From Candidatus Poribacteria bacterium (GTDB lineage Bacteria; Poribacteria; WGA-4E; WGA-3G), in the NCBI GenBank assembly GCA_965214095.1, contig OZ243938.1:3648001-3712000 (forward strand): a stretch of DNA of 64,000 nt, in the 5' to 3' direction. Positions 10,079-56,846 of the stretch are shown here, one piece after another. The notes below the pieces were generated by a model. The model did no database searches. It saw nothing but the letters and a program-made list of their open reading frames with translations, and was not told where the DNA came from. The position numbers were made by a program, and so were the translations under genes. Each line of letters opens with the position of its first letter. Position 1 is the first letter of the stretch.

Positions 10079-10142
10079 GTTAATCTTCTCCCCTTTCAAA
10101 ATATGCAAGGTACAAAGACCTCGCGTGCTAATATGATACTAA

Positions 10143-10500
10143 GTTTATTGTAAAAACCTTGATTATTTACACACTACGGTAGGTTCGGTTTCCTAACCGA
10201 ACCGGCTTTTTGCCAAATACCTTCATAGAGTTTCTCGCGTAGGATCCGGTTCGGTTAGGAAACCGAACCTACCGGCCTGGGGAAAACGCCTAATTTACAC
10301 TAAATTGACGCCTATGGTTCGGTTAGGAAACCGCACCTACCGGTCTGGGGCAAAAACAACACGTCTACCTGATTTATAGTGAATTATAAAATATGTTGAC
10401 ACTTGTTCTATAGGGGCGAACTCCGATTCGCGAATTATTATTATCGAGAATCGGAGTTCGTTCCTACAGATCAAATGCCAAGTTAATTCTAAAATCCACT
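10143..10500. repeat. REP/MITE cluster (solo IS-type end at ~10297..10316; T2-like element 10375..10500)
   Basis: Three main-family REP hairpins, cactaaattgacgcctatg end, and a tatagtgaattataa... element with an internal gaactccgattc / gaatcggagttc doublet. Confidence 0.7.
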
Positions 10501-20642: not shown

Positions 20643-20731
20643 AGTTATACACCCAAAATTGTTGATACAGATATATGGTAGATTATGGAATTATTTATAC
20701 AGTCTACAACGGTGCGATTAGGAAATTGTAC

Positions 20732-20902
20732 CATAAGCGTCAATTTAGCATCCTTCCAAGTACTGGTAGGTTCGGTTTCCTAACCGAACCGGCTTTGTGC
20801 CAAATACCTTTATAGAGGTTCTCGCACAGGTTCCGTGCGGTTAGGAAACCGCACCTACCGGCCTGGAGAAAACGCCTAATTTACACTAAATTGACGCCTA
20901 TG
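20732..20902. mobile_element. 171-bp MITE with the IS4 element's TIRs; 20-bp target duplication
   Basis: Ends cataagcgtcaatttag / ctaaattgacgcctatg; gtgcgattaggaaattgtac at both 20712..20731 and 20903..20922. Confidence 0.9.
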
Positions 20903-20922
20903 GTGCGATTAGGAAATTGTAC

Positions 20923-21129: not shown

Positions 21130-21637
21130 GTGCGATTAGGAAATCGCACCTACCGGGGTACGGAAGTGTATAATTATTTTTTAACCATAATATGTTCAAT
21201 AAACGTGTCGTATCTACACGGTATGGATATGGAATCACACCGTGTGCATCACGATGGACGCAACCCGATTCACGGCAATCAGCAGGGAATTCCTAATCAT
21301 CCCTTCACCGTTAATTGTGCAAAAGTGCAAAATTAACACTGATCCCCTAATTAATTAAAAATGTAATAAAATATTGGATTCCCGATTGTTCCAATAACCT
21401 ATCCCTGTTGATCAGTACGATTAGATATGTGCACCAACCAACTTAGACATTAATATATTAGCACAGTACAGAATTTTCTTCAAGGAGTGTGTAAAGTTAA
21501 TACTCAAAGCGGTAGGTTCGGTTTCCTAACCAATGCAGAATACCACACGCGTATTCTGGCGAAACCGTCAATTTAGCATCCTTCCAAGTACCGGTAGGTT
21601 CGGTTTCCTAACCGAACCGGGTTTGCGCCAATTCATC

Positions 21638-26940: not shown

Positions 26941-27016
26941 AATCCTTTGTCCCACACACCGGTAGGTGCGATTTAGCGTGCTTCTAGGTCCGGTAGGTTC
27001 GGTTAGGAAACCGCAC

Positions 27017-27187
27017 CATAAGCGTCAATTTAGCATCCTTCCAAGTACCGGTAGGTTCGGTTTCCTAACCGAACCGGCTTTGTGCCAAATACCTTTATAG
27101 AGGTTCTCGCACAGGTTCCGTGCGGTTAGGAAACCGCACCTACCGGTCTGGGGAAAACGCCTAATTTACACTAAATTGACGCCTATG
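27017..27187. mobile_element. 171-bp MITE with IS4-type TIRs; 20-bp target duplication
   Basis: gttcggttaggaaaccgcac at both 26997..27016 and 27188..27207. Confidence 0.9.
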
Positions 27188-27264
27188 GTTCGGTTAGGAA
27201 ACCGCACCTACCAGCCTGGCGTCGGCACAAAGCCGGTTCGGTTAGGAAACCGAACCTACCGGCA

Positions 27265-31542: not shown

Positions 31543-34224
31543 CTATTTTAATATAACAAGCTGCCGTATTTGCTGGAAAGATGACGTTTCCAATCGGTAG
31601 AAATAGACACCACTTGCAACCCGTTCACCTAAAGCATTTCTACCATCCCAATACGCAGCACGTCCTTGGTTGTGATAGAAACCTTCGGACTGATACCCTA
31701 TAGTAAGCGTCCGAACAAGTCCACCTGTTGAATCATATATTGATATGGATACAGGGGACGCAACTGACAACTGATACGGAATCCACGTCTCAGGATTGAA
31801 CGGATTCGGATAGTTCTGCAACAACTTATCTTTGTTCGGTTGACCGATACTATCCAGTGTGACAGGAAGCAAAGCATTCGCTAAGTTATCAGGTGTTACC
31901 GTAAAGATGTATCTCTCAGAGGCAACGTTTCCGTTGGTATCAGTGACGGTAACTTCCAGTGTATCACCAACTTGCACAACGCTTCGATAGCTCAGGTCTG
32001 CCGTTGCAGCAGCGAAGTAGTTATCACTGACCTGTGCTGTCATGAGGGTGTTTGTCCGTGTGTTTCTGACTGAGATAAGATAGCCATCATATTGTTGTGT
32101 GTCATCTAATTGTCCACTCATAACGAATGCCCATGTTTCGGGTGCTGTTATATTTGGTGTTGCAGTCGGTGCTGCTGCACTGTCTTGTTGTGGGTTTGTC
32201 CAACCTGCACCGACGAATGCGAATTCGCGTGCTTGTGGCACATTGACGATGTAGCCTTTTCCGCCTTCAATAGCGAATCCATCGTTAGGTGCGTTTGGTG
32301 TCCACCCGACGAAACTCTGTTTCTCGGTATCCAGTGCTATAACAACCGTTGCACCAGTCAATCCAGCAAATGATTTTGCGTTCATTGGTGTTCGGGAAGC
32401 TAAAGGCACAGAAAGCATGTTCAAACCTTTCGTCAACTTCACACTGTAGGCGTTGCCAAACAAGTCGCTCACTGCTTCGGTAGTAGGTTTAGCGATAAAT
32501 CCGTGTCTACGTCCATCCGCTGACACATAGTTCCCGACAATAGAGCCATCCTGATTGATATTCCAACCCTCAGTGCTAACACTACCCGGGAATTCCAATT
32601 CTTTGAGTCCGTGCTGGAATGAACCGGTTACGGTACCCACCACATCTCCATACCTTTTGGCTCTGCCTACCAGAGTCCCTACATCGTTGATTCCGTGCAC
32701 AAAAAAGAATTCAAACGTTGCTGCTCGTGGCAATTCAATAGATATAAACCTTTCATCAGGGTTAAGCACATAAGGATGATATACCCCATCAGCATCCACA
32801 TAACTACCTACGAGGCGACCACTCGCGTTTACAAAATTGGCATAAGTTGCAGATGCATCGGGAACTTCCACGATGTCGTCTCCTGTGAACCCGCGACGAA
32901 CACCGGCTTCATCAATATAAGTCCCAGTCAATGCACCTGTCGCATCACTGATTCCATATATCTCTGTTTGCACAGCACCCGGGAAATCGTATTGCCGCAG
33001 TTCCCCATTTTCCAAAACGACACCATGATAGTTTCCGTCACTATCCATGTAGTGTCCAGCAGCGTTTCCATTATTACCGAGTGCATAGAAATGCGTTTTC
33101 TGTGAGTCGGGGAAATTATACCTCTTGAACTCACCATCAATTAGGGTAAATGCAACTTCTTTTTCACCATCAGCACTCAGTGTGTAACCGGCGTAATCCT
33201 CAAAGTCGCTACTTGCAGTCAACGCTAAGAAATCCACACCTGGAACATTAATACTTTCAAAGGTAAAGTTGAATTCGGTAGGCGTAGCAACAACAGGTTC
33301 GTCTTCAACTTCTGGAGCGATTCTGGCGATAAAGCCGTGTCTGTTACCATCTTCAGTGTCATAATGTCCGACAATAGAACCGTCTTGATTGATATTCCAC
33401 CCTTCCGTACTCACGCTGTCCGGAACCATAAACGGCTGTAGTCCATCCTGAAATGTACCGACAAATGTACTCGGAACACCGCCTTTACGTTTAGTCCGTG
33501 CAACGATGACTCTTGCATCGTTGATACCGTGCACAAAGAAGTATTCCAGAAATGATGCTTGTGGAAGGTCAAGAGAAACAAATCTGCCATCGGGTGTACG
33601 AATATAAGGATGATATAGACCTTCAGCATCAACGTAGCTCCCCACCATACCACCGCTTGAGTTCACAAAGTCAGCAAAAGTTTCCTGTGCTCCTTCAACT
33701 TCAATTATTTCGTCTCCAGAGAATCCGCGGCGAACACCAGAAGCATCTGTATAATTACCTGTCAAAGCACCAGTTGAATCACTGATACCGTAGATTTCAG
33801 TTTGAACGGAATCCGGAAAATCGTATTGCTGCAATTCGCCATTTTCATCCAAAACGACACCGTGTGTTAGCCCTTCACTGTCCTCGTAGTGTCCGGCAGC
33901 TTGACCATTATTACCGAGTGCAAAGAAATAAGTGTTTTGCGAACCCGGGAAATCATGCGTTGTAAAAACACCATCAATGAGTGTGAAGGCAACATTTTTT
34001 TCACCATCAGCACTTTTCGTGTAACCAGCGAAATCTCCAAAATCGTTACTCGCTGTCAACGCTAAAAAATCTACCCCCGGAACATCTATCGTCTCAAAAG
34101 TATAGTTGTCACTGGCAGATGCAGTCACATCTTGTGCAACAGTGTTCATCAAGAAAAATGAATTGAAGCACATCAACACTATAAGCATGTAAAAGAAAGG
34201 ACTCGTCTTAATCAATTTAGACAT
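31543..34224 (-). CDS. Secreted two-domain repeat protein with FlgD-Ig/T9SS-like C-terminal domain, paralogue 2
   Basis: Signal peptide; two ~275-aa homologous domains (FETIDVPGVDFLALTAS... / FESINVPGVDFLALTAS...); LLQNYPNPFNPETWIPY. Confidence 0.8.
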   Translation of the reverse strand: MSKLIKTSPFFYMLIVLMCFNSFFLMNTVAQDVTASASDNYTFETIDVPGVDFLALTASNDFGDFAGYTKSADGEKNVAFTLIDGVFTTHDFPGSQNTYFFALGNNGQAAGHYEDSEGLTHGVVLDENGELQQYDFPDSVQTEIYGISDSTGALTGNYTDASGVRRGFSGDEIIEVEGAQETFADFVNSSGGMVGSYVDAEGLYHPYIRTPDGRFVSLDLPQASFLEYFFVHGINDARVIVARTKRKGGVPSTFVGTFQDGLQPFMVPDSVSTEGWNINQDGSIVGHYDTEDGNRHGFIARIAPEVEDEPVVATPTEFNFTFESINVPGVDFLALTASSDFEDYAGYTLSADGEKEVAFTLIDGEFKRYNFPDSQKTHFYALGNNGNAAGHYMDSDGNYHGVVLENGELRQYDFPGAVQTEIYGISDATGALTGTYIDEAGVRRGFTGDDIVEVPDASATYANFVNASGRLVGSYVDADGVYHPYVLNPDERFISIELPRAATFEFFFVHGINDVGTLVGRAKRYGDVVGTVTGSFQHGLKELEFPGSVSTEGWNINQDGSIVGNYVSADGRRHGFIAKPTTEAVSDLFGNAYSVKLTKGLNMLSVPLASRTPMNAKSFAGLTGATVVIALDTEKQSFVGWTPNAPNDGFAIEGGKGYIVNVPQAREFAFVGAGWTNPQQDSAAAPTATPNITAPETWAFVMSGQLDDTQQYDGYLISVRNTRTNTLMTAQVSDNYFAAATADLSYRSVVQVGDTLEVTVTDTNGNVASERYIFTVTPDNLANALLPVTLDSIGQPNKDKLLQNYPNPFNPETWIPYQLSVASPVSISIYDSTGGLVRTLTIGYQSEGFYHNQGRAAYWDGRNALGERVASGVYFYRLETSSFQQIRQLVILK

Positions 34225-34704
34225 AAAAAAAACTCCTCTTGGTAATTTCTATAAATCTCAACATCCCTGTCAAACAAAGTGTCTCATATTTGATTTGTAA
34301 ATATCTTAACAGTATCTAATTTTTTCAAGAAAAACACAAGTTAAATTGTCTGTATTCAGGGTTATTTAGCCTTAGGTTTATCTGGTGTTTCTTTCACGGA
34401 CGCTAAATGTCCCAAAACGGTAGGTGCGGTTTCCTAACCGAACCGGCTTTGTTCCAAATACGTTCATATAGGTTCTCGCACAGGTTCCGTGCGGTTAGGA
34501 AACCGCACCTACCGGCCTGGGGAAAACGCGTAGGATCCGGTTCGGTTAGGAAACTTTCACGGACGCTAAATGCCCCAGGCCGGTAGGTTCGGTTTCCTAA
34601 CCGAACCGGCTTTATGCCAAATACGTTCATATAGGTTCTTGCACAGGTTCCGTGCGGTTAGGAAACCGCACCTACCGGCCTTAGGTGAGGTTAGGAAACC
34701 GCAC

Positions 34705-36192
34705 CATAGGCGTCAATTTAGTGATTTTTTGCTGCATTTTCAAGGTGTTCTAATGTTGTGTCTCTATTAGCACGTCTCTCAATGTAGCACCCATTTTGGA
34801 AAGCGTGTTTTATTTCATCAAAAGTTTGCCGAAAAGACATTATAGACTTGCGGAAACCTATTGCAAGTGTGCGTGCGAAGGTGCTAATAAGTTCTGCTGT
34901 TTTTGTTAGACTATGTTTTAGACATCGCCAACCGACCCTTAACATGATCCAGTGCCGCATAATTGCGACGATGAGTTTTGCATATAACTCACATAAGATT
35001 CTATATGGCTTGTCGCTACGGGAGGTATCAACTTTTCCAATGCTTTTGAAGCACTTGAACATCAACTCAACCTGCCATCGGATGCGTGCGACAGCACAAA
35101 TCTGTTCAGCAGTCAGATGGTCTACTTTTATATTAGTAATGTAGATATTCCATCTTGCGAGCTGAAGTCGTTTGGGTGAAGGTTTCGTATACTTCCGCTT
35201 TGCACGATGTTTTATCTCCTTAATACGCTGTTGGGTTTCTGTTTCTGAAAGTCTTTGAACAACTAATCGTGCTTTGAGACGCTTGTTTTTACCTATAAAG
35301 ATTTGTTTGTCCTTGAAGTTATTAGAACCCTTCTTGAGCCATTTTAGCAAACAAAAAGGGTCACCTGTTTCATCATAGAGAAAACACTGGACTTTGTAGC
35401 GTGATATCCAAAAGACGTTTGCATCGGAAAGTCTTTTGAAGGTATCAAGTGAATAATAGCCGAGGTCTGCGAGGCGCAAACTGCCGGCGGGTAGCATGTC
35501 AATCTGCTTTTCAATAGCACTATCAGCGGTGATACCATTGGTCAGTTCAAAGTGTTCAAAAGTGCCTGTGGCACTATCAAAACGCAGGTGGAGTTTCACG
35601 GCAGCTGTGTTCGGTTTATTCTTTTTGCTTCCACCTTCCCAAGTTTCGTGGAGCACATCAGGGAGTGTAATCCAAGAACTATCTTGTAAATAGACACCAG
35701 TGAACTTTTCAAGGAGCGGAAGCGTTTGCGGGTCGGCAGAAATAACCTTGGACGCAGTAGCATCAAGGATAACTTTCAGGGTCTCTGCTGCTTCAGATGT
35801 AAATCGTTGTTCAATGGCTTGTCGTGAGATTGAAATCCCCAGCACACCAGCGGTTTGCGCAAGTTGTGTATAGGTGGCATCTGGGTTTTCTAACCAAGTC
35901 CAAATGAGTATTTGAGCAAAACGACTACCGTTGAGTTTACAACTTCTTTTGACAAAACCTGTATTGAGAGCTGCATCATTGGCTATAGTTGTAAGAATAT
36001 GTTGCATTTCTTTGGGAACTTGTGATAATGTATTCATTAGGAAACACCTCTTTGTAGACCATAATAAATCTATATCTACATTATATATGAGGTGTTTTCA
36101 TTTTTACAGAAGTTTTATTTCATAATTTATACTTCCTCTGATTAAAAGTTGACACTTATCGGTCTTGGTGCATCCTTAAATTGACGCCTATG
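34705..36192 (-). mobile_element. IS4-family insertion sequence (IS231-like CAT..ATG ends), 1488 bp, inserted in a REP hairpin
   Basis: TIRs cataggcgtcaattta / taaattgacgcctatg; direct repeat gtgaggttaggaaaccgcac at 34685..34704 and 36193..36212. Confidence 0.93.
34718..36037 (-). CDS. IS4-family DDE transposase
   Basis: 439 aa; QDSS (D1), LADLGY (D2), ARIRWQVELMFKCFKS (YREK-type motif, with A in place of Y); stop codon inside the TIR. Confidence 0.95.
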   Translation of the reverse strand: MNTLSQVPKEMQHILTTIANDAALNTGFVKRSCKLNGSRFAQILIWTWLENPDATYTQLAQTAGVLGISISRQAIEQRFTSEAAETLKVILDATASKVISADPQTLPLLEKFTGVYLQDSSWITLPDVLHETWEGGSKKNKPNTAAVKLHLRFDSATGTFEHFELTNGITADSAIEKQIDMLPAGSLRLADLGYYSLDTFKRLSDANVFWISRYKVQCFLYDETGDPFCLLKWLKKGSNNFKDKQIFIGKNKRLKARLVVQRLSETETQQRIKEIKHRAKRKYTKPSPKRLQLARWNIYITNIKVDHLTAEQICAVARIRWQVELMFKCFKSIGKVDTSRSDKPYRILCELYAKLIVAIMRHWIMLRVGWRCLKHSLTKTAELISTFARTLAIGFRKSIMSFRQTFDEIKHAFQNGCYIERRANRDTTLEHLENAAKNH

Positions 36193-36259
36193 GTGAGGTT
36201 AGGAAACCGCACCCTACCAGCCTGGGGATTAACATAATCCTGAAAATCCTGGTTCAGAA

Positions 36260-38959
36260 TTACTTCAAAATAATTAACCGACGCGTTTGCTGGAAAGAAG
36301 GTGTCGTCAACTGGTAGAAATAAATACCACTTGCAACTTTTTCACCTAAAGTATTTCTGCCATTCCAATACGCAGCACGTCCGTGGTTATGATAGAATCC
36401 CTCCGATTGATAGCCGAGAGTAAGCGTCCGAACAAGTCCACCTGCCGTATCATATATTGATATGGATACAGGGGACGCAACCGACAGTTGATACGGTATC
36501 CACGTCTCAGGATTGAAGGGGTTCGGGTAGTTCTGCAACAACTGGTCTTTGTTCGGTTGACCGATGCTGTCAAGGGTGACAGGAAGCAAAGCATTCGCTA
36601 AGTTGTCGGGTGTCACCTTAAAGATATATTTCTCTGATGCGACATTCCCGATTATGTCAGACACGATTACTTCCAACGTATCACCAACTTGCACAACACT
36701 CCGATATGAAAGGTCTGCCGTAGCAGCGGCAAAGTAGTTATCACTGACTTTCGCTGTCATAACGGTGTTTGTCCGCGTGTTTCGGACTGTGATATGATAA
36801 CCGTCGTATTTCTGTGTACCTTGTAATTGTCCACTGACAACGAAAGCCCAAGCCTCACGTGCTGTCGCATTTGGAGATGCAGTCGGTGCTGCACTCGTAG
36901 GCATTTCATTTGTCCAACGTGCTCCGACGAAAGCAAAATCACGAACTTCTGGGACATTGACGATATAACCCTGACCACCTTCTATTGTGAAGCCATCATC
37001 AGGTGAACTTGGTGTCCAACCGATGAAACTTTGACTTTCAGTGTCAAGTGCTATCACCATTGTTGATCCTGTTATACCCGCCAGAGATTTTGCGTTCATT
37101 CGCGTTGTCGGTGCTAATGGCACAGACAGCATGTTTAGACCTTTGGTGAGTGTGACGGTATACGTGTTACCAAAATGATCACTCTCTTCCTGAGTACTGA
37201 GTCTTGCGACAAACCCGTGTCTACGTCCATCTGCTGAGACATAGTTCCCGACGACAGAAGCATCTTGATTGATATTCCAGCCCTCCGTGCTAACACTACC
37301 CGGATACTGCAATTCATGTAGTCCGTGCTGGAATGAGCCGACATAGGTGCGCGGCATGTCACCTACTGCTTTGGCTCTGCTAACGACAACGATGCCCCTT
37401 GCGTCTACATCGGCGACACCGTGAACGAAAAAGTATTCCAGATTGGTCGGATCCAGATAGTTCAGAACTGCGTATCTGCCATCCGGTCTATACGCGTATG
37501 AATGATATAGACCTTCAACGTCTACGTAGCTGCCGACGACAAGACCGCTTGCGTACACAAAATCGGCATAAGTTGCTGCTGCTTCAGGAGCCTCAACAAC
37601 TGTATCACCTGAGAATCCGCGACGAACGCCATCAGCACCTATAAAATTACCTGTCAGTGCGCCTGTTGCATCACTGATACCGAATATTTGCGTTTCGACG
37701 GCATCCGGAAAATCGTATTGGCGCAGTTCACCGTTTTCTAAGATGACACCGTGATAGAGACCGTCACTATCTTCGTAGTGCCCCGCAGCTTGTCCATTAT
37801 TATCGAGCGCATAGAAATATGTATTCTTAGAGCCGGGGAAATCGTAGGTGGTAAAAACACCATCAATCAGCGTAAAGGCGACTATTTTCTCGCCATCAGC
37901 ACGCCGCGTGTTACCAGCGTAATCTTCAAAATCGCTACTCGCTGTCAGATCTAAATAATCTACACCCGGCACATCAATGCTCTCAAATATAAAGTTGAAG
38001 TCGGCATCTGGTGTAGCGGGTTGCGTAGCAGTATCCGTTGTGGGTTTTGCGATAAACCCGTGTCTGTTTCCATCTGCTGTATCATAGTGTCCGACGATAG
38101 AACCGTCCTGATTAATATTCCAGCCCTCTGTGATAACACTGCCCGGATACTGCACTTCATGTAGACCATACCGCAGCGACCCGACATAGGTGCGTGTGAC
38201 ATCATCCACTGCTTTTGCTCTGCCAATGACAATCGTTGCATCGTTGATTCCATGCAGAAAAATGTATTCCAGATTGGACGCATCCAGATAATCCACAGTG
38301 AAGAATCTGCCATCCGGCGCAAACAGGTATGTATGATATAGACCTTCAACGTCTATGTATGTGCCTACGATACGACCGCTTGAGTTCACAAAATCGGCAT
38401 AAGTTGCTGTTGCATCGGGGTACTCAACGATTGTCTCGCCTGAAAATCCTCGGCGAATACCAGAAGTATCAATAAAATTGCCTGTCAGCGCGCCCGTCGC
38501 ATCACTGATACCGTATATCTCCGTTTGCACGGCACCCGGAAAATCGTATTGTCGCAACTCACCATCTTCTCCTAAGACGACACCGTGGTAGAGCCCATCG
38601 CTATCTTGGTAATGCCCCGCAGCTTGTCCATTATTACCGAATGCATAAAAATGAGTTTTCTGCGAATTGGGGAAATCGTAGGTCGTAAAAACACCATCAA
38701 TCAGTGTAAAGGCGACTTCTTTTTCTCCATCAGCACTCCGTGTGTAACCCGCATAATCCTCAAAGTCACTACTCGCTGTCACCGCTAAAAAATCTACACC
38801 CGGAACATCAATGCTCTCAAAGGTAAAGCTGGAGCCAGCGGACGCAACAGCGGATTCATCGTTATCTTGTGCAGTAGTTTCCCTTATGAAAAAGGAATTG
38901 AGGCACATGAATAACGTAAATATGTAAAACAGAAAACTGGTTCTAATTTGATTGCGCAT
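36260..38959 (-). CDS. Secreted two-domain repeat protein with FlgD-Ig/T9SS-like C-terminal domain, paralogue 3
   Basis: Same architecture as 31543..34224; 899 aa. Confidence 0.8.
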   Translation of the reverse strand: MRNQIRTSFLFYIFTLFMCLNSFFIRETTAQDNDESAVASAGSSFTFESIDVPGVDFLAVTASSDFEDYAGYTRSADGEKEVAFTLIDGVFTTYDFPNSQKTHFYAFGNNGQAAGHYQDSDGLYHGVVLGEDGELRQYDFPGAVQTEIYGISDATGALTGNFIDTSGIRRGFSGETIVEYPDATATYADFVNSSGRIVGTYIDVEGLYHTYLFAPDGRFFTVDYLDASNLEYIFLHGINDATIVIGRAKAVDDVTRTYVGSLRYGLHEVQYPGSVITEGWNINQDGSIVGHYDTADGNRHGFIAKPTTDTATQPATPDADFNFIFESIDVPGVDYLDLTASSDFEDYAGNTRRADGEKIVAFTLIDGVFTTYDFPGSKNTYFYALDNNGQAAGHYEDSDGLYHGVILENGELRQYDFPDAVETQIFGISDATGALTGNFIGADGVRRGFSGDTVVEAPEAAATYADFVYASGLVVGSYVDVEGLYHSYAYRPDGRYAVLNYLDPTNLEYFFVHGVADVDARGIVVVSRAKAVGDMPRTYVGSFQHGLHELQYPGSVSTEGWNINQDASVVGNYVSADGRRHGFVARLSTQEESDHFGNTYTVTLTKGLNMLSVPLAPTTRMNAKSLAGITGSTMVIALDTESQSFIGWTPSSPDDGFTIEGGQGYIVNVPEVRDFAFVGARWTNEMPTSAAPTASPNATAREAWAFVVSGQLQGTQKYDGYHITVRNTRTNTVMTAKVSDNYFAAATADLSYRSVVQVGDTLEVIVSDIIGNVASEKYIFKVTPDNLANALLPVTLDSIGQPNKDQLLQNYPNPFNPETWIPYQLSVASPVSISIYDTAGGLVRTLTLGYQSEGFYHNHGRAAYWNGRNTLGEKVASGIYFYQLTTPSFQQTRRLIILK

Positions 38960-50097: not shown

Positions 50098-50214
50098 ATA
50101 GTCTCCTTGAAAATGGAATAGGACTCAATTATAGATTTAATTATTTACACACTACGGTAGGTTCGGTTTCCTAACCGCTTCCCCAGGACGGTAGGTTCGG
50201 TTTCCTAACCGACC

Positions 50215-50386
50215 CATAAGCGTCAATTTAGCGTCCTTCCAAGTACCGGTAGGTTCGGTTTCCTAACCGAACCGGCTTTGTGCCAAATACCTTCATAGAG
50301 GTTCTCGCATAGGATCCGGTTCGGTTAGGAAACCGAACCTACCGGCCTGGGATTATAGCGTGATTCCCCTTAAATTGACGCCTATG
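50215..50386. mobile_element. 172-bp MITE with IS4-type TIRs; 20-bp target duplication; nested in T3 element 50130..50515
   Basis: gttcggtttcctaaccgacc (non-consensus REP variant) at both 50195..50214 and 50387..50406. Confidence 0.9.
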
Positions 50387-50534
50387 GTTCGGTTTCCTAA
50401 CCGACCCGGTGTTTGTTCTGTCTCATAGTCAGGCAGAATGCGCGTATGGCATTCTGCATTGGTTAGGAAACCGCATCTACCGGGGAGTGTGCATGTATTT
50501 TTACATTTTACTATAATAACACGAGGATGTCAAA

Positions 50535-56356: not shown

Positions 56357-56846
56357 TGTCTGAACCAGGATTTTCAGGATTAGTAGATTTTCAAGATAAG
56401 ACTTCTCATCTAATACCATTTCTCATAAAGAATAGTTCATTATGAGATTGTGAATTCAGCGGAATATTGTCTGGACCAAGATTTTCAGGATTATGCGTCT
56501 GACGTTTCAAAGTGCCGTTGGTGGGATAGGCTGAAACTTGATGTTGGCAAGAATGGGACAATCGGGGTTAGAGACCCTACCTAAAGATTAGTGTAGACAG
56601 AACACTACGGTAGGTTCGGTTTCCTAACCGAACCGGCTTTGTGCCAAATACCTTCATAGAGGTTCTCGCACAGGTTCCGTGCGGTTAGGAAACCGCACCT
56701 ACCGGCCTGGGGAAAACGCCTAATTTACACTAAATTGACACCTATGGTTCGGTTTCCTAACCGAACTGGTGTTTGTTCAGTGTTATAGATGCGGTTAGGA
56801 AACCGCATCTACCGTGGAGTGTGCCCGTATTTTTACATTTCACTAC
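56357..56846. repeat. REP/MITE cluster upstream of metH
   Basis: Two TCTGAACCAGGAT-type halves, four main-family REPs, a solo IS-type end ctaaattgacacctatg and a T3 right end. Confidence 0.7.

Follow-up and report, generated by a model that had tools for sequence, protein, structure and literature searches.

I describe here an insertion sequence (IS) of 1488 bp that lies within a stretch of 64,000 nucleotides (hereafter the window, by which the whole stretch is meant) from a Candidatus Poribacteria bacterium (assembly GCA_965214095.1, contig OZ243938.1, positions 3,648,001 to 3,712,000). Coordinates without a prefix count from the first nucleotide of the window, and those prefixed with C1 refer to the contig of that name in the genome. 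Every full copy of the IS in the genome is flanked by an exact 20-bp direct repeat, and most copies lie in precise register with a hairpin resembling repetitive extragenic palindromic (REP) sequences, the duplicated 20-mer and the hairpin being one and the same. These observations are probably explained by an active IS of the IS4 family, encoding a Tn5-like DDE transposase, that together with its miniature inverted-repeat transposable elements (MITEs) makes an intrinsic stagger of about 20 bp and chooses its targets mainly by the sequence of two half-sites. The IS in the window, its parts, and the repeats on either side of it are the following.

34705..36192, minus strand: full-length IS of 1488 bp, one of the 13 copies in the genome (blastn)
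34705..34720, plus strand: terminal inverted repeat CATAGGCGTCAATTTA, at the end 3' of the transposase stop codon
36177..36192, minus strand: terminal inverted repeat at the end 5' of the transposase gene, continued inward by TAA
34718..36037, minus strand: transposase gene, a single open reading frame (ORF) of 439 aa for a Tn5-like DDE enzyme
34685..34704: left copy of the 20-bp target duplication, a REP-like hairpin variant GTGAGG..CCGCAC
36193..36212: right copy of the 20-bp target duplication

Read directly, the left edge of the IS at 34705 is CATAGGCGTCAATTTA and the right edge at 36192 is TAAATTGACGCCTATG. The terminal inverted repeats are perfect over 16 bp and begin with CAT, giving the element CAT..ATG ends. 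Both ends carry the CAT and, at positions 11-12, the AA of the IS231 end consensus, CAT-------AA--TAA (PMC2266710, Table 1), and at positions 15-17 the gene-proximal end reads TAA and the other end TAG. A single ORF without frameshift and short terminal repeats that begin 5'-CA, both usual in the IS4 family, are found here as well.

The predicted transposase matches the Pfam model PF01609 (DDE_Tnp_1) with an E-value of 1.9e-22. It scores 195.9 bits with NF033592, the NCBIfam equivalog for the IS4 family (cut-off 115), as against only 29.2 bits with the model for IS1634 (cut-off 100), which leaves it outside the latter group. The candidate catalytic residues, recognized by motif and conservation, are D119, D191, and E324, invariant in the alignments and separated by spacers of 71 and 132 residues, within the D(60-110)D(100-150)E spacing of the IS4 family. 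The Y(2)R(3)E(6)K signature is incomplete, in that A317-x2-R320-x3-E324-x6-K331 contains the R, the E, and the K and has alanine in the position of Y (VARIRWQVELMFKCFK). A search of PDB by sequence returned nothing up to an E-value of 1, and it was a search by fold that brought out Tn5: a structure predicted with 34 homologues (predicted local distance difference test score, pLDDT, of 80.2) found Tn5 transposase in all of its top five matches (E 3e-10 to 1e-8, probability 1.00, template modelling score 0.42-0.45), despite sequence identities of 12-13%. The best named relatives by sequence are IS231C (27.8% identity, E 8e-35) and ISBth4, both at about 27-28% identity. Taken together, these comparisons support the assignment of the element to the IS4 family, with a Tn5-like DDE transposase and IS231-like ends.

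As an initial annotation of the window had described, the 1488-bp element lies between identical 20-mers, gtgaggttaggaaaccgcac, at 34685-34704 and 36193-36212. The sequence occurs only these two times in the 5.2-Mb genome, and it is therefore a private variant rather than two REPs that chanced to lie at the ends of the IS. The same annotation had taken the 20-mer to be an 8-bp arm, a 4-nt loop, and an 8-bp arm. The consensus forms of the 20-mer do fold into a stem of 8 bp and a loop of 4 nt, but the copy in the window, by direct reading, has one A/G mismatch within its stem. Three MITE sites that were said to share this geometry do so at the coordinates claimed for them, and the window holds beyond these a fourth MITE, in tandem with one of the three, and two copies with only one end.

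20732..20902, plus strand: 171-bp MITE, flanked by gtgcgattaggaaattgtac at 20712-20731 and 20903-20922, a 20-mer found twice in the genome
20923..21129, plus strand: 207-bp MITE in tandem with the preceding one, the 20-mer at 20903-20922 being common to both
27017..27187, plus strand: 171-bp MITE, flanked by gttcggttaggaaaccgcac at 26997-27016 and 27188-27207
50215..50386, plus strand: 172-bp MITE, flanked by gttcggtttcctaaccgacc at 50195-50214 and 50387-50406, a private 20-mer
10301..10316, minus strand: right end of a one-ended MITE, adjoining a GTTC.. hairpin, the left terminal repeat being absent
56731..56746, minus strand: right end (one mismatch) of a second one-ended MITE, adjoining a GTTC..GAAC hairpin

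The right flank of the tandem MITE (21130-21149) differs at two positions from the 20-mer on its left. The motif of the terminal repeat was found 12 times in the window, where 0.08 matches were expected from shuffled sequence, and none of 100 shuffles reached 12. The interior of the MITEs is a REP doublet and not the remains of a deleted IS: in those at 20732-20902, 27017-27187, and 50215-50386, only 16-18 bp of IS end frame an inverted pair of hairpins, one GTTC-type and one GTGC-type, with about 41 bp between them. The same doublet, without IS ends, lies just to the left of the window IS, at 34418-34680. The one-ended MITEs (10140-10340 and 56600-56760) consist of a REP doublet and a right terminal repeat with no left one, and they could be either precursors of MITEs or products of recombination between REPs.

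The abundance of the element was assessed throughout the 5.2-Mb assembly. There are 13 copies of the IS, all of full length, 11 of them at 99.8-100% identity and two at 98.25%, and the transposase ORF, of 439 or 447 aa, is intact in each. Such near-identity amongst intact copies speaks for recent activity of the element. Pairing of end motifs gave 57 elements in all: besides the 13 full copies there are 36 MITEs, 160-215 bp long, and 8 others. The flanks were tabulated genome-wide, as the initial annotation had proposed, and the outcome agrees with what it expected: most full copies lie on REPs, and none of the 13 has a duplication near 10 bp. Instead, exact 20-bp repeats flank all 13, a length beyond the one helix turn or so (7-13 bp) by which the IS4 family is recognized. 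Amongst the MITEs, 19 are flanked by repeats of 20 bp (with at most two mismatches), two by repeats of 19 bp, one by repeats of 21 bp, and 14 by none; one of the 8 other elements has a 20-bp duplication and seven have no duplication. With the terminal repeats of the IS, the same duplication length, and no transposase gene, the MITEs are non-autonomous derivatives of this IS. In three of three tandem junctions between elements in the genome, the spacer is exactly 20 bp.

Are the flanking repeats true duplications, as the initial annotation maintained, or merely REPs that were there beforehand? That they are duplications is upheld by private 20-mers and by uninterrupted sites in relatives that hold a single copy. 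In 10 of the 24 exact 20-bp duplications, the 20-mer is found in the genome only at its own flanks. When empty sites were reconstructed as flank, one hairpin, and flank, they matched up to about 105 paralogous places at 93-98% identity over 100 bp, from which it follows that the unoccupied form of the site holds one hairpin and not two in tandem, the latter being the outcome that would have counted against a duplication. Nowhere in the genome do two hairpins lie closer together than 33 bp. That minimum spacing also led to rejection of the idea that REPs have been amplified through excision footprints, which would appear as adjoining hairpins.

Three full copies lie inside ORFs (C1:4400707-4402194, C1:4265783-4267269, and C1:4200153-4201640), at 20-mers that are unique and non-palindromic. 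With the IS and 20 bp taken out, the sequence at the three sites reads through as ORFs of 269, 315, and at least 600 aa. The interrupted ORFs are one for a ResIII/DEAD-box helicase that also has a weak PLD-like domain and may serve in defence or restriction, one for a WD40-repeat protein, and the ORF of 269 aa, whose 174-aa N-terminal fragment has no match in Pfam. For the helicase site it was possible to make a direct comparison with related genomes (G007, G009, and G011), and at all five uninterrupted homologous places the two flanks overlap by exactly 20 bp. The third of the gene sites bears also on the boundaries of the element. It had been suggested that the stagger might be read as 18 bp if the ends were taken to be CCAT..ATGG, but this is excluded by the neighbouring bases at C1:4200153, which are t and a. 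The ends are therefore CAT..ATG, and the duplication is exactly 20 bp.

The same three sites address what sets the length of the stagger. The initial annotation attributed the 20-nt stagger to a cut at the base of an extruded hairpin, and this interpretation is not supported, in view of the unfoldable sites, the longer palindromes, and the hairpins that go unused, amongst other things. The 20-mers within genes have no potential to fold (0, -0.6, and 0 kcal/mol) and nonetheless have been duplicated over exactly 20 bp, so it is the transposase, and no hairpin, that determines the stagger. At 20 of 21 REP sites, the palindrome outruns the duplicated 20-mer, and at three sites verified by private variants it does so by 5, 6, and 10 bp; the cuts, then, are not at the base of the stem. 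In a related genome (G021), a variant hairpin of 19 bp with a 3-nt loop is accompanied by a duplication of 20 bp that takes in one extra G (locus L088). Judged from these sequences, the stagger is inherent in the enzyme, whatever the site, and may deviate by about one base.

To return to the choice of site, REP-like hairpins in exact register carry 10 of the 13 full copies, the remaining three being those inside genes. A hairpin lies at offset 0 from 68 of 163 element ends, at offset +1 from one, and at no other offset up to 25 bp. The preference for REP hairpins claimed in the initial annotation is evident from these counts, but the further claim that insertions are confined to safe sites between genes holds only for most full copies, since three of 13 interrupt ORFs. 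The element behaves as a REP-targeting IS in the sense of the type 1 association of Tobes and Pareja (PMC1525189), in which most copies lie at the same point of the REP. One full copy (2355851-2357338) is nested in a MITE (C1:2355717-2357396), within the MITE's internal hairpin and with a 20-bp duplication, so that MITEs supply new targets for their parent element.

An exact core GGTT-(AGGA or TCCT)-AACC is found in 668 hairpins of the genome, which fall into four main classes: GTTC..GAAC (264), GCGA..TCGC (108), GTGC..GCAC (82), and ATGC..GCAT (70). What distinguishes the classes is the outer four base pairs, where the changes are compensatory; the fold of 8-bp stem and 4-nt loop is common to all, with energies of -7.3, -8.4, -8.7, and -8.2 kcal/mol, respectively. 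They are nonetheless used very unequally. Hairpins adjoining an element in register number 42 in the GTTC class, 10 in the GTGC class, one in the ATGC class, and none in the GCGA class, which amounts to an occupancy of 0/108 for GCGA..TCGC and 1/70 for ATGC..GCAT, in spite of their equal geometry and stability. In a wider set of 717 hairpin-like sites, elements occupy 68 of 399 sites with GT..AC ends as against 11 of 318 with other ends. The integrity of the stem has no visible effect, imperfect stems being used at least as often as perfect ones, both with GT..AC ends (13/48 imperfect, 55/351 perfect) and with other ends (9/131 imperfect, 2/187 perfect).

The genome provides its own control for context in the form of 126 doublet units, in which an ATGC-type hairpin and a GTTC-type hairpin lie 22 bp apart. 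An element is found on the GTTC side 12 times and on the other side once, and the single hairpin used on the off side begins with GT. Because the two hairpins are paired, genomic context is removed as an explanation of the difference. These composites, about 126 in number, resemble bacterial interspersed mosaic elements and consist of an ATGC..GCAT hairpin joined by the 22-bp linker ctatgagactgaacaaacaccg to a GTTC..GAAC hairpin, as for example at C1:769460-769521. At the sites outside REPs (12 sites, symmetrized to 24 half-sites), there is a G at position -1 in 14 of 24, a G at +1 in 20, a T at +2 in 13, and a G at +3 in 14, a profile that is the sequence of the REP ends, g|GTG..CAC|c. The evidence from the two kinds of sites favours targeting that follows the end sequence and not the shape of the hairpin.

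I use the term REP-like because no clear partner of the REP-associated tyrosine transposase (RAYT) type, flanked by the repeats, was identified. Five matches to Y1_Tnp are present (C1:81623-81976, C1:2170036-2170389, C1:2385609-2385962, C1:4230081-4230434, and C1:2666075-2666299). Four are near-identical ORFs of 141 aa, which look more like copies of an IS200-type element, and only two of the five have a single hairpin within 600 bp.

What mechanism might produce this pattern? The transposase complex would attack the two strands of its target about 20 bp apart (20 +/- 1), which is roughly two turns of the helix, 20 bp of straight B-DNA measuring about 68 A, whereas the nearest sampled relatives outside its clade, with a spacing of about 11 bp, would have their two active sites one turn apart. 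Each half of the symmetric complex would prefer g|GT(G/T) where the duplicated stretch starts and, where it ends, the complement (C/A)AC|c. The commonest REP-like palindromes of the host, g-GTKCGGTT-loop-AACCGMAC-c, would supply both half-sites perfectly, at exactly the preferred spacing, and so serve as strong hot spots, and an insertion in one of them would duplicate the whole 20-bp hairpin. The preference for half-sites may have been inherited from IS231-like ancestors with GG..CC ends at a spacing of 11 bp, and insertions in hairpins would survive better than insertions in genes. I infer that recognition acts on ordinary duplex DNA by way of the two half-sites and, from what holds for the family, that transposition would be of the cut-and-paste type.

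The close relatives found in public genomes all come from assemblies of Candidatus Poribacteria, and those at 47-90% identity have duplications of 17-20 bp. One at 84% identity (L006) duplicates 20 bp, and lineages at 47-49% identity duplicate 17-18 bp, or as many as 19 bp when the terminal bases in common are included. Another lineage, about 55% identical and with ends that I will call TG-type, targets the palindrome GTCGGGT-N13/14-ACCCGAC and duplicates GGT..ACC, cutting 4 bp inside the 7-bp stem, and its duplications at three sites outside REPs are of 19 bp. The related Poribacteria genome of 6.07 Mb mentioned earlier (G021) contains 393 end motifs, as opposed to none in a reversed control, and of 17 pairs of ends examined there, ten have a duplication of 20 bp, two of 19 bp, and five none. 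In this genome MITEs with CG-type ends lie in hairpins of the GTGCGG type and elements with TG-type ends in the GGGT..ACCC palindrome, from which it appears that two related lineages in one cell use different classes of REP. One of its CG-type MITEs (L085) duplicates 19 bp at a hairpin of 19 bp. Arrays of MITEs separated by single 20-mers occur at L074-L089 of G021 and at L023, as do hybrid elements with one TG-type end, one CG-type end, and no duplication.

Beyond the Poribacteria, there is an element on a plasmid of Herpetosiphon aurantiacus (34.8% identity). Its ends are perfect, and the direct repeat around it is perfect over 21 bp, or over 19 bp with CA read as the ends; once the element is taken out, an ORF of at least 760 aa is restored. 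No second copy was found in a collection of plasmids or in the same record, so the duplication in this case rests on one copy. Distant relatives, at 23-31% identity, have ends of the CATAGCC type and short duplications. Seven of their loci in genomes gave three exact duplications of 11 bp, one of 11 bp with one mismatch (by eye), one of 7 bp, and two with none; amongst 56 metagenome loci analysed, of 80 returned, there were five exact duplications of 9-11 bp and four more of 10-11 bp with one or two mismatches. A duplication of 17 bp or more was found at none of the 56 metagenome loci or of the seven genome loci. The targets of these short-duplication relatives are small palindromes, such as gggttagaccc and gggtcagaccc, and their GG..CC ends indicate that the preference at the ends is shared and that only the spacing differs. 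The small palindromes also match what is reportedly the target consensus of IS231A, GGG(N)5CCC, said to have been described by Hallet et al. in 1994.

A maximum-likelihood tree of 18 chosen sequences, only one of them a named member of IS231, joins the seven long-duplication elements (six from Poribacteria and that from Herpetosiphon) in one clade with support of 98/99, and it groups IS231C with clostridial elements that duplicate 11 bp (93/96). Since the seven elements with duplications of 17-21 bp are monophyletic, the long duplication may be considered a trait of the clade. All 10 short-duplication relatives keep the Y of the YREK motif, as opposed to only two of seven long-duplication elements. 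I sought an insertion or deletion that defines the clade and might explain the longer stagger, and found none that is clean; a segment of about 17 aa, present in the clostridial elements that duplicate 11 bp, is also much shorter in some of the relatives with duplications of 9-10 bp.

A number of observations weigh against an intrinsic stagger combined with choice by half-sites. The most serious comes from the TG-type lineage, whose duplication tracks the loop of its target: it is 19 bp at eight of eight sites with a 13-nt loop and 20 bp at four of five sites with a 14-nt loop, the fifth reading as either 19 or 20 bp. The cuts of that lineage are thus fixed on the arms and not at a fixed distance from each other, and an enzyme that reads the hairpin would give the same result. 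The tracking would also fit a flexibility of +/-1 combined with anchoring on half-sites, and one base of play does not exceed the published spread of duplication lengths in IS231 (10-12 bp) and IS4 (10-13 bp) (PMC2266710, Table 1). Nine of the ten full copies in REPs face the same way with respect to the asymmetric loop and tail (transposase gene on the minus strand where the loop is AGGA, or the mirror image), a bias not predicted by a purely symmetric half-site model. The MITEs divide 5 to 3, making 14 to 4 for full copies and MITEs together, and I judged the bias (9/10 full copies, 5/8 MITEs) too weak to serve as a signal. The enrichment in REPs is far above what the short GT..AC end motif predicts; the inner sequence of the stem, the deformability of the DNA, or transient extrusion could contribute to it, and it is inflated by selection against insertions in genes. 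Furthermore, the hairpins counted in the comparisons of occupancy are not independent events, so that Fisher p-values overstate significance and are indicative only.

Other reservations concern the duplication itself. In 14 of the 24 exact cases, the flanking 20-mer is the REP consensus, present 4 to 264 times in the genome, and for that reason none of these cases is by itself proof of a duplication. At two or more sites the flanks appear to be recombinant. An orthologous empty site for the copy in the window was not recovered amongst the relatives: its left flank matches them only over the part within the gene (query 6-361 of 805), the intergenic REP region not being conserved, and four sets of short-read contigs, which break at repeats, contain no trustworthy joint that skips the IS and 20 bp, the joints found having short sides (22-34 letters) and lying between REPs. 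Finally, transposition is deduced here from sequence.

How far do these points favour other explanations? One might suppose that the transposase reads an extruded hairpin or cruciform and cuts its stem at fixed points, the 20-nt stagger arising from the geometry of the hairpin. The perfect register (68 of 163 ends at offset 0 and one at +1), the 19- or 20-bp duplications of the TG-type lineage according to a 13- or 14-nt loop, and the 19-bp duplication at a 19-bp hairpin in L085 are all as one would then expect. I nevertheless consider it quite improbable, in the face of exact 20-bp duplications at three unstructured gene sites with confirmed empty sites, hairpins of equal quality but different outer base pairs that are essentially unused, an occupancy of imperfect stems (13/48) at least as high as that of perfect ones (55/351), cuts that lie inside longer palindromes and not at their base, the 19-bp hairpin with a 3-nt loop in L088 whose duplication extends to 20 bp by an extra G, and a duplication of 19-21 bp within a gene in the relative from Herpetosiphon. 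A milder proposal, that half-sites place the cuts and the enzyme sets the distance of about 20 bp, while palindromic or deformable REP DNA raises the rate of insertion, seems to me unlikely, though it deserves a hearing. It draws on the presence of 10 of 13 full copies in REPs, when the 668 core-exact hairpins occupy only a very small part of the genome, on the fact that several targets outside REPs are other palindromic repeats (for example, GTGCGGTAAAGGCACCGCAC), and on the arm-tracking duplications of the TG-type lineage, which it accommodates. But whether a stem is intact makes no visible difference to its use, much of the apparent enrichment can come from selection against gene insertions without any effect of structure, and the present counts reflect the rate of insertion and survival afterwards together.

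That there is no duplication at all, the element carrying a copy of the hairpin with it, or sitting between tandem hairpins that were already there, or having been placed by REP recombination, is scarcely credible. Most flanking 20-mers are indeed the REP consensus, with 82-264 occurrences in the genome, and a few sites have flanks that look like hybrids, but the flanks differ from copy to copy and include 10 private 20-mers, hairpins are never less than 33 bp apart and so do not pre-exist in tandem, paralogous empty sites hold one hairpin, and uninterrupted homologous gene sites hold one copy of the 20-mer. An intrinsic stagger with choice by half-sites remains the explanation that I prefer.

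A broader scenario can be put forward tentatively, as something not far short of an even proposition. A clade of Tn5-like elements, present in Poribacteria and at least one member of the Chloroflexota, may have roughly doubled its stagger, from 9-11 bp (about one helix turn) to 17-21 bp (about two), while keeping the ancestral preference for half-sites of the GG..CC type, its lineages within Poribacteria each specializing on a different class of host REP with cuts anchored on the two arms whatever the length of the loop. Within one genome, CG-type ends would go with GTGCGGTT-loop-AACCGCAC hairpins and TG-type ends with GTCGGGT-N13/14-ACCCGAC. If this is true, then each subunit of the transposase docks on one arm of the REP, the elements are dedicated "safe-harbour" elements that co-evolve with the REP repertoire of their host, and the architecture of the transposition complex is new to the family.

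Because the geometry of the transposition complex shows in the length of the duplicated target, that length is treated as a family hallmark. Here a duplication fixed at about 20 bp characterizes a monophyletic group nested amongst relatives with similar ends, a similar half-site preference, and duplications of 9-11 bp, which amounts to a natural experiment on the stagger of DDE enzymes and makes the long-duplication clade attractive for structural work. The genome of the present bacterium also offers a factorial test of sequence versus structure in the targeting of REPs, with four classes of the same fold and paired hairpins 22 bp apart. On the practical side, annotation pipelines that seek duplications of 8-13 bp will set the boundaries of such elements wrongly, and each 20-bp duplication of a REP hairpin leaves two identical hairpins behind, a point to bear in mind when Poribacteria genomes are assembled and interpreted.

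Two observations apart from the element may be recorded. The window IS sits between tandem paralogous genes of about 895 aa each, on the minus strand at 31543-34224 and 36260-38959, both of which have a duplicated internal module and a C-terminal segment containing NYPNPFNPETWIPY, possibly akin to a secretion sorting domain. Contig C2 of the assembly (32,066 bp) has a G+C content of 64.1%, compared to 41.1% in the main contig, and may be foreign or contaminant sequence.

It remains to compare the element with systems already known. According to PMC2266710, duplications in the IS4 family are of 7-13 bp, "about one helix turn", and direct repeats (Table 1) are 10-12 bp in IS231, 10-13 bp in IS4, and 8-9 bp in IS50. 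I found no literature on a duplication of about 20 bp in the IS4 family or on insertion sequences of Poribacteria, and a relative registered in ISfinder is possible. The IS231 subgroup (IS231A, IS231C, and ISBth4) has the same kind of Tn5-like DDE enzyme encoded by a single ORF and the same end consensus, but its direct repeats of 10-12 bp stand against the 20 bp found here, IS231C falls outside the long-duplication clade (98/99, in a tree with one named member of IS231), and the present element is specialized on REP-like repeats of its host. Tn5 (IS50) shares the fold at 12-13% identity and makes duplications of 8-9 bp.

Targeting of REPs is itself well established, for elements of five families including ISRm22 (PMC1525189). 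ISRm22 of Sinorhizobium meliloti, an IS4-family element placed in the IS4Sa subgroup (PMC2266710), has all its copies in REPs, inserted at the axis of the palindrome (PMC1525189), and duplicates 6 bp at the palindrome's centre, whereas the element described here duplicates the whole 20-bp hairpin and makes the same 20-bp duplication at sites outside REPs. A strong preference for a fixed position in REPs or palindromic units, as here, is reported also for IS1397 and ISKpn1 (IS3 family) and for IS621, ISPpu9, and ISPpu10 of the IS110 family (PMC1525189), but their enzymes belong to different families and their direct repeats are of 2-3 bp or absent. In elements of the IS110 type, a DEDD recombinase is reported to be directed by a bridge or seek RNA, and the present element has no long non-coding region that might hold a guide. 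Very long duplications are reported only from IS1634 and IS1549, former relatives of IS4, where they vary by copy from 8 to 514 bp (PMC2266710), in contrast to the fixed 20 +/- 1 bp seen here. From its sequence, then, the element appears to belong to the IS4 family by its enzyme and its ends, and to stand outside the IS231 subgroup by the tree and the length of its duplication, and outside the family's range of duplications altogether.

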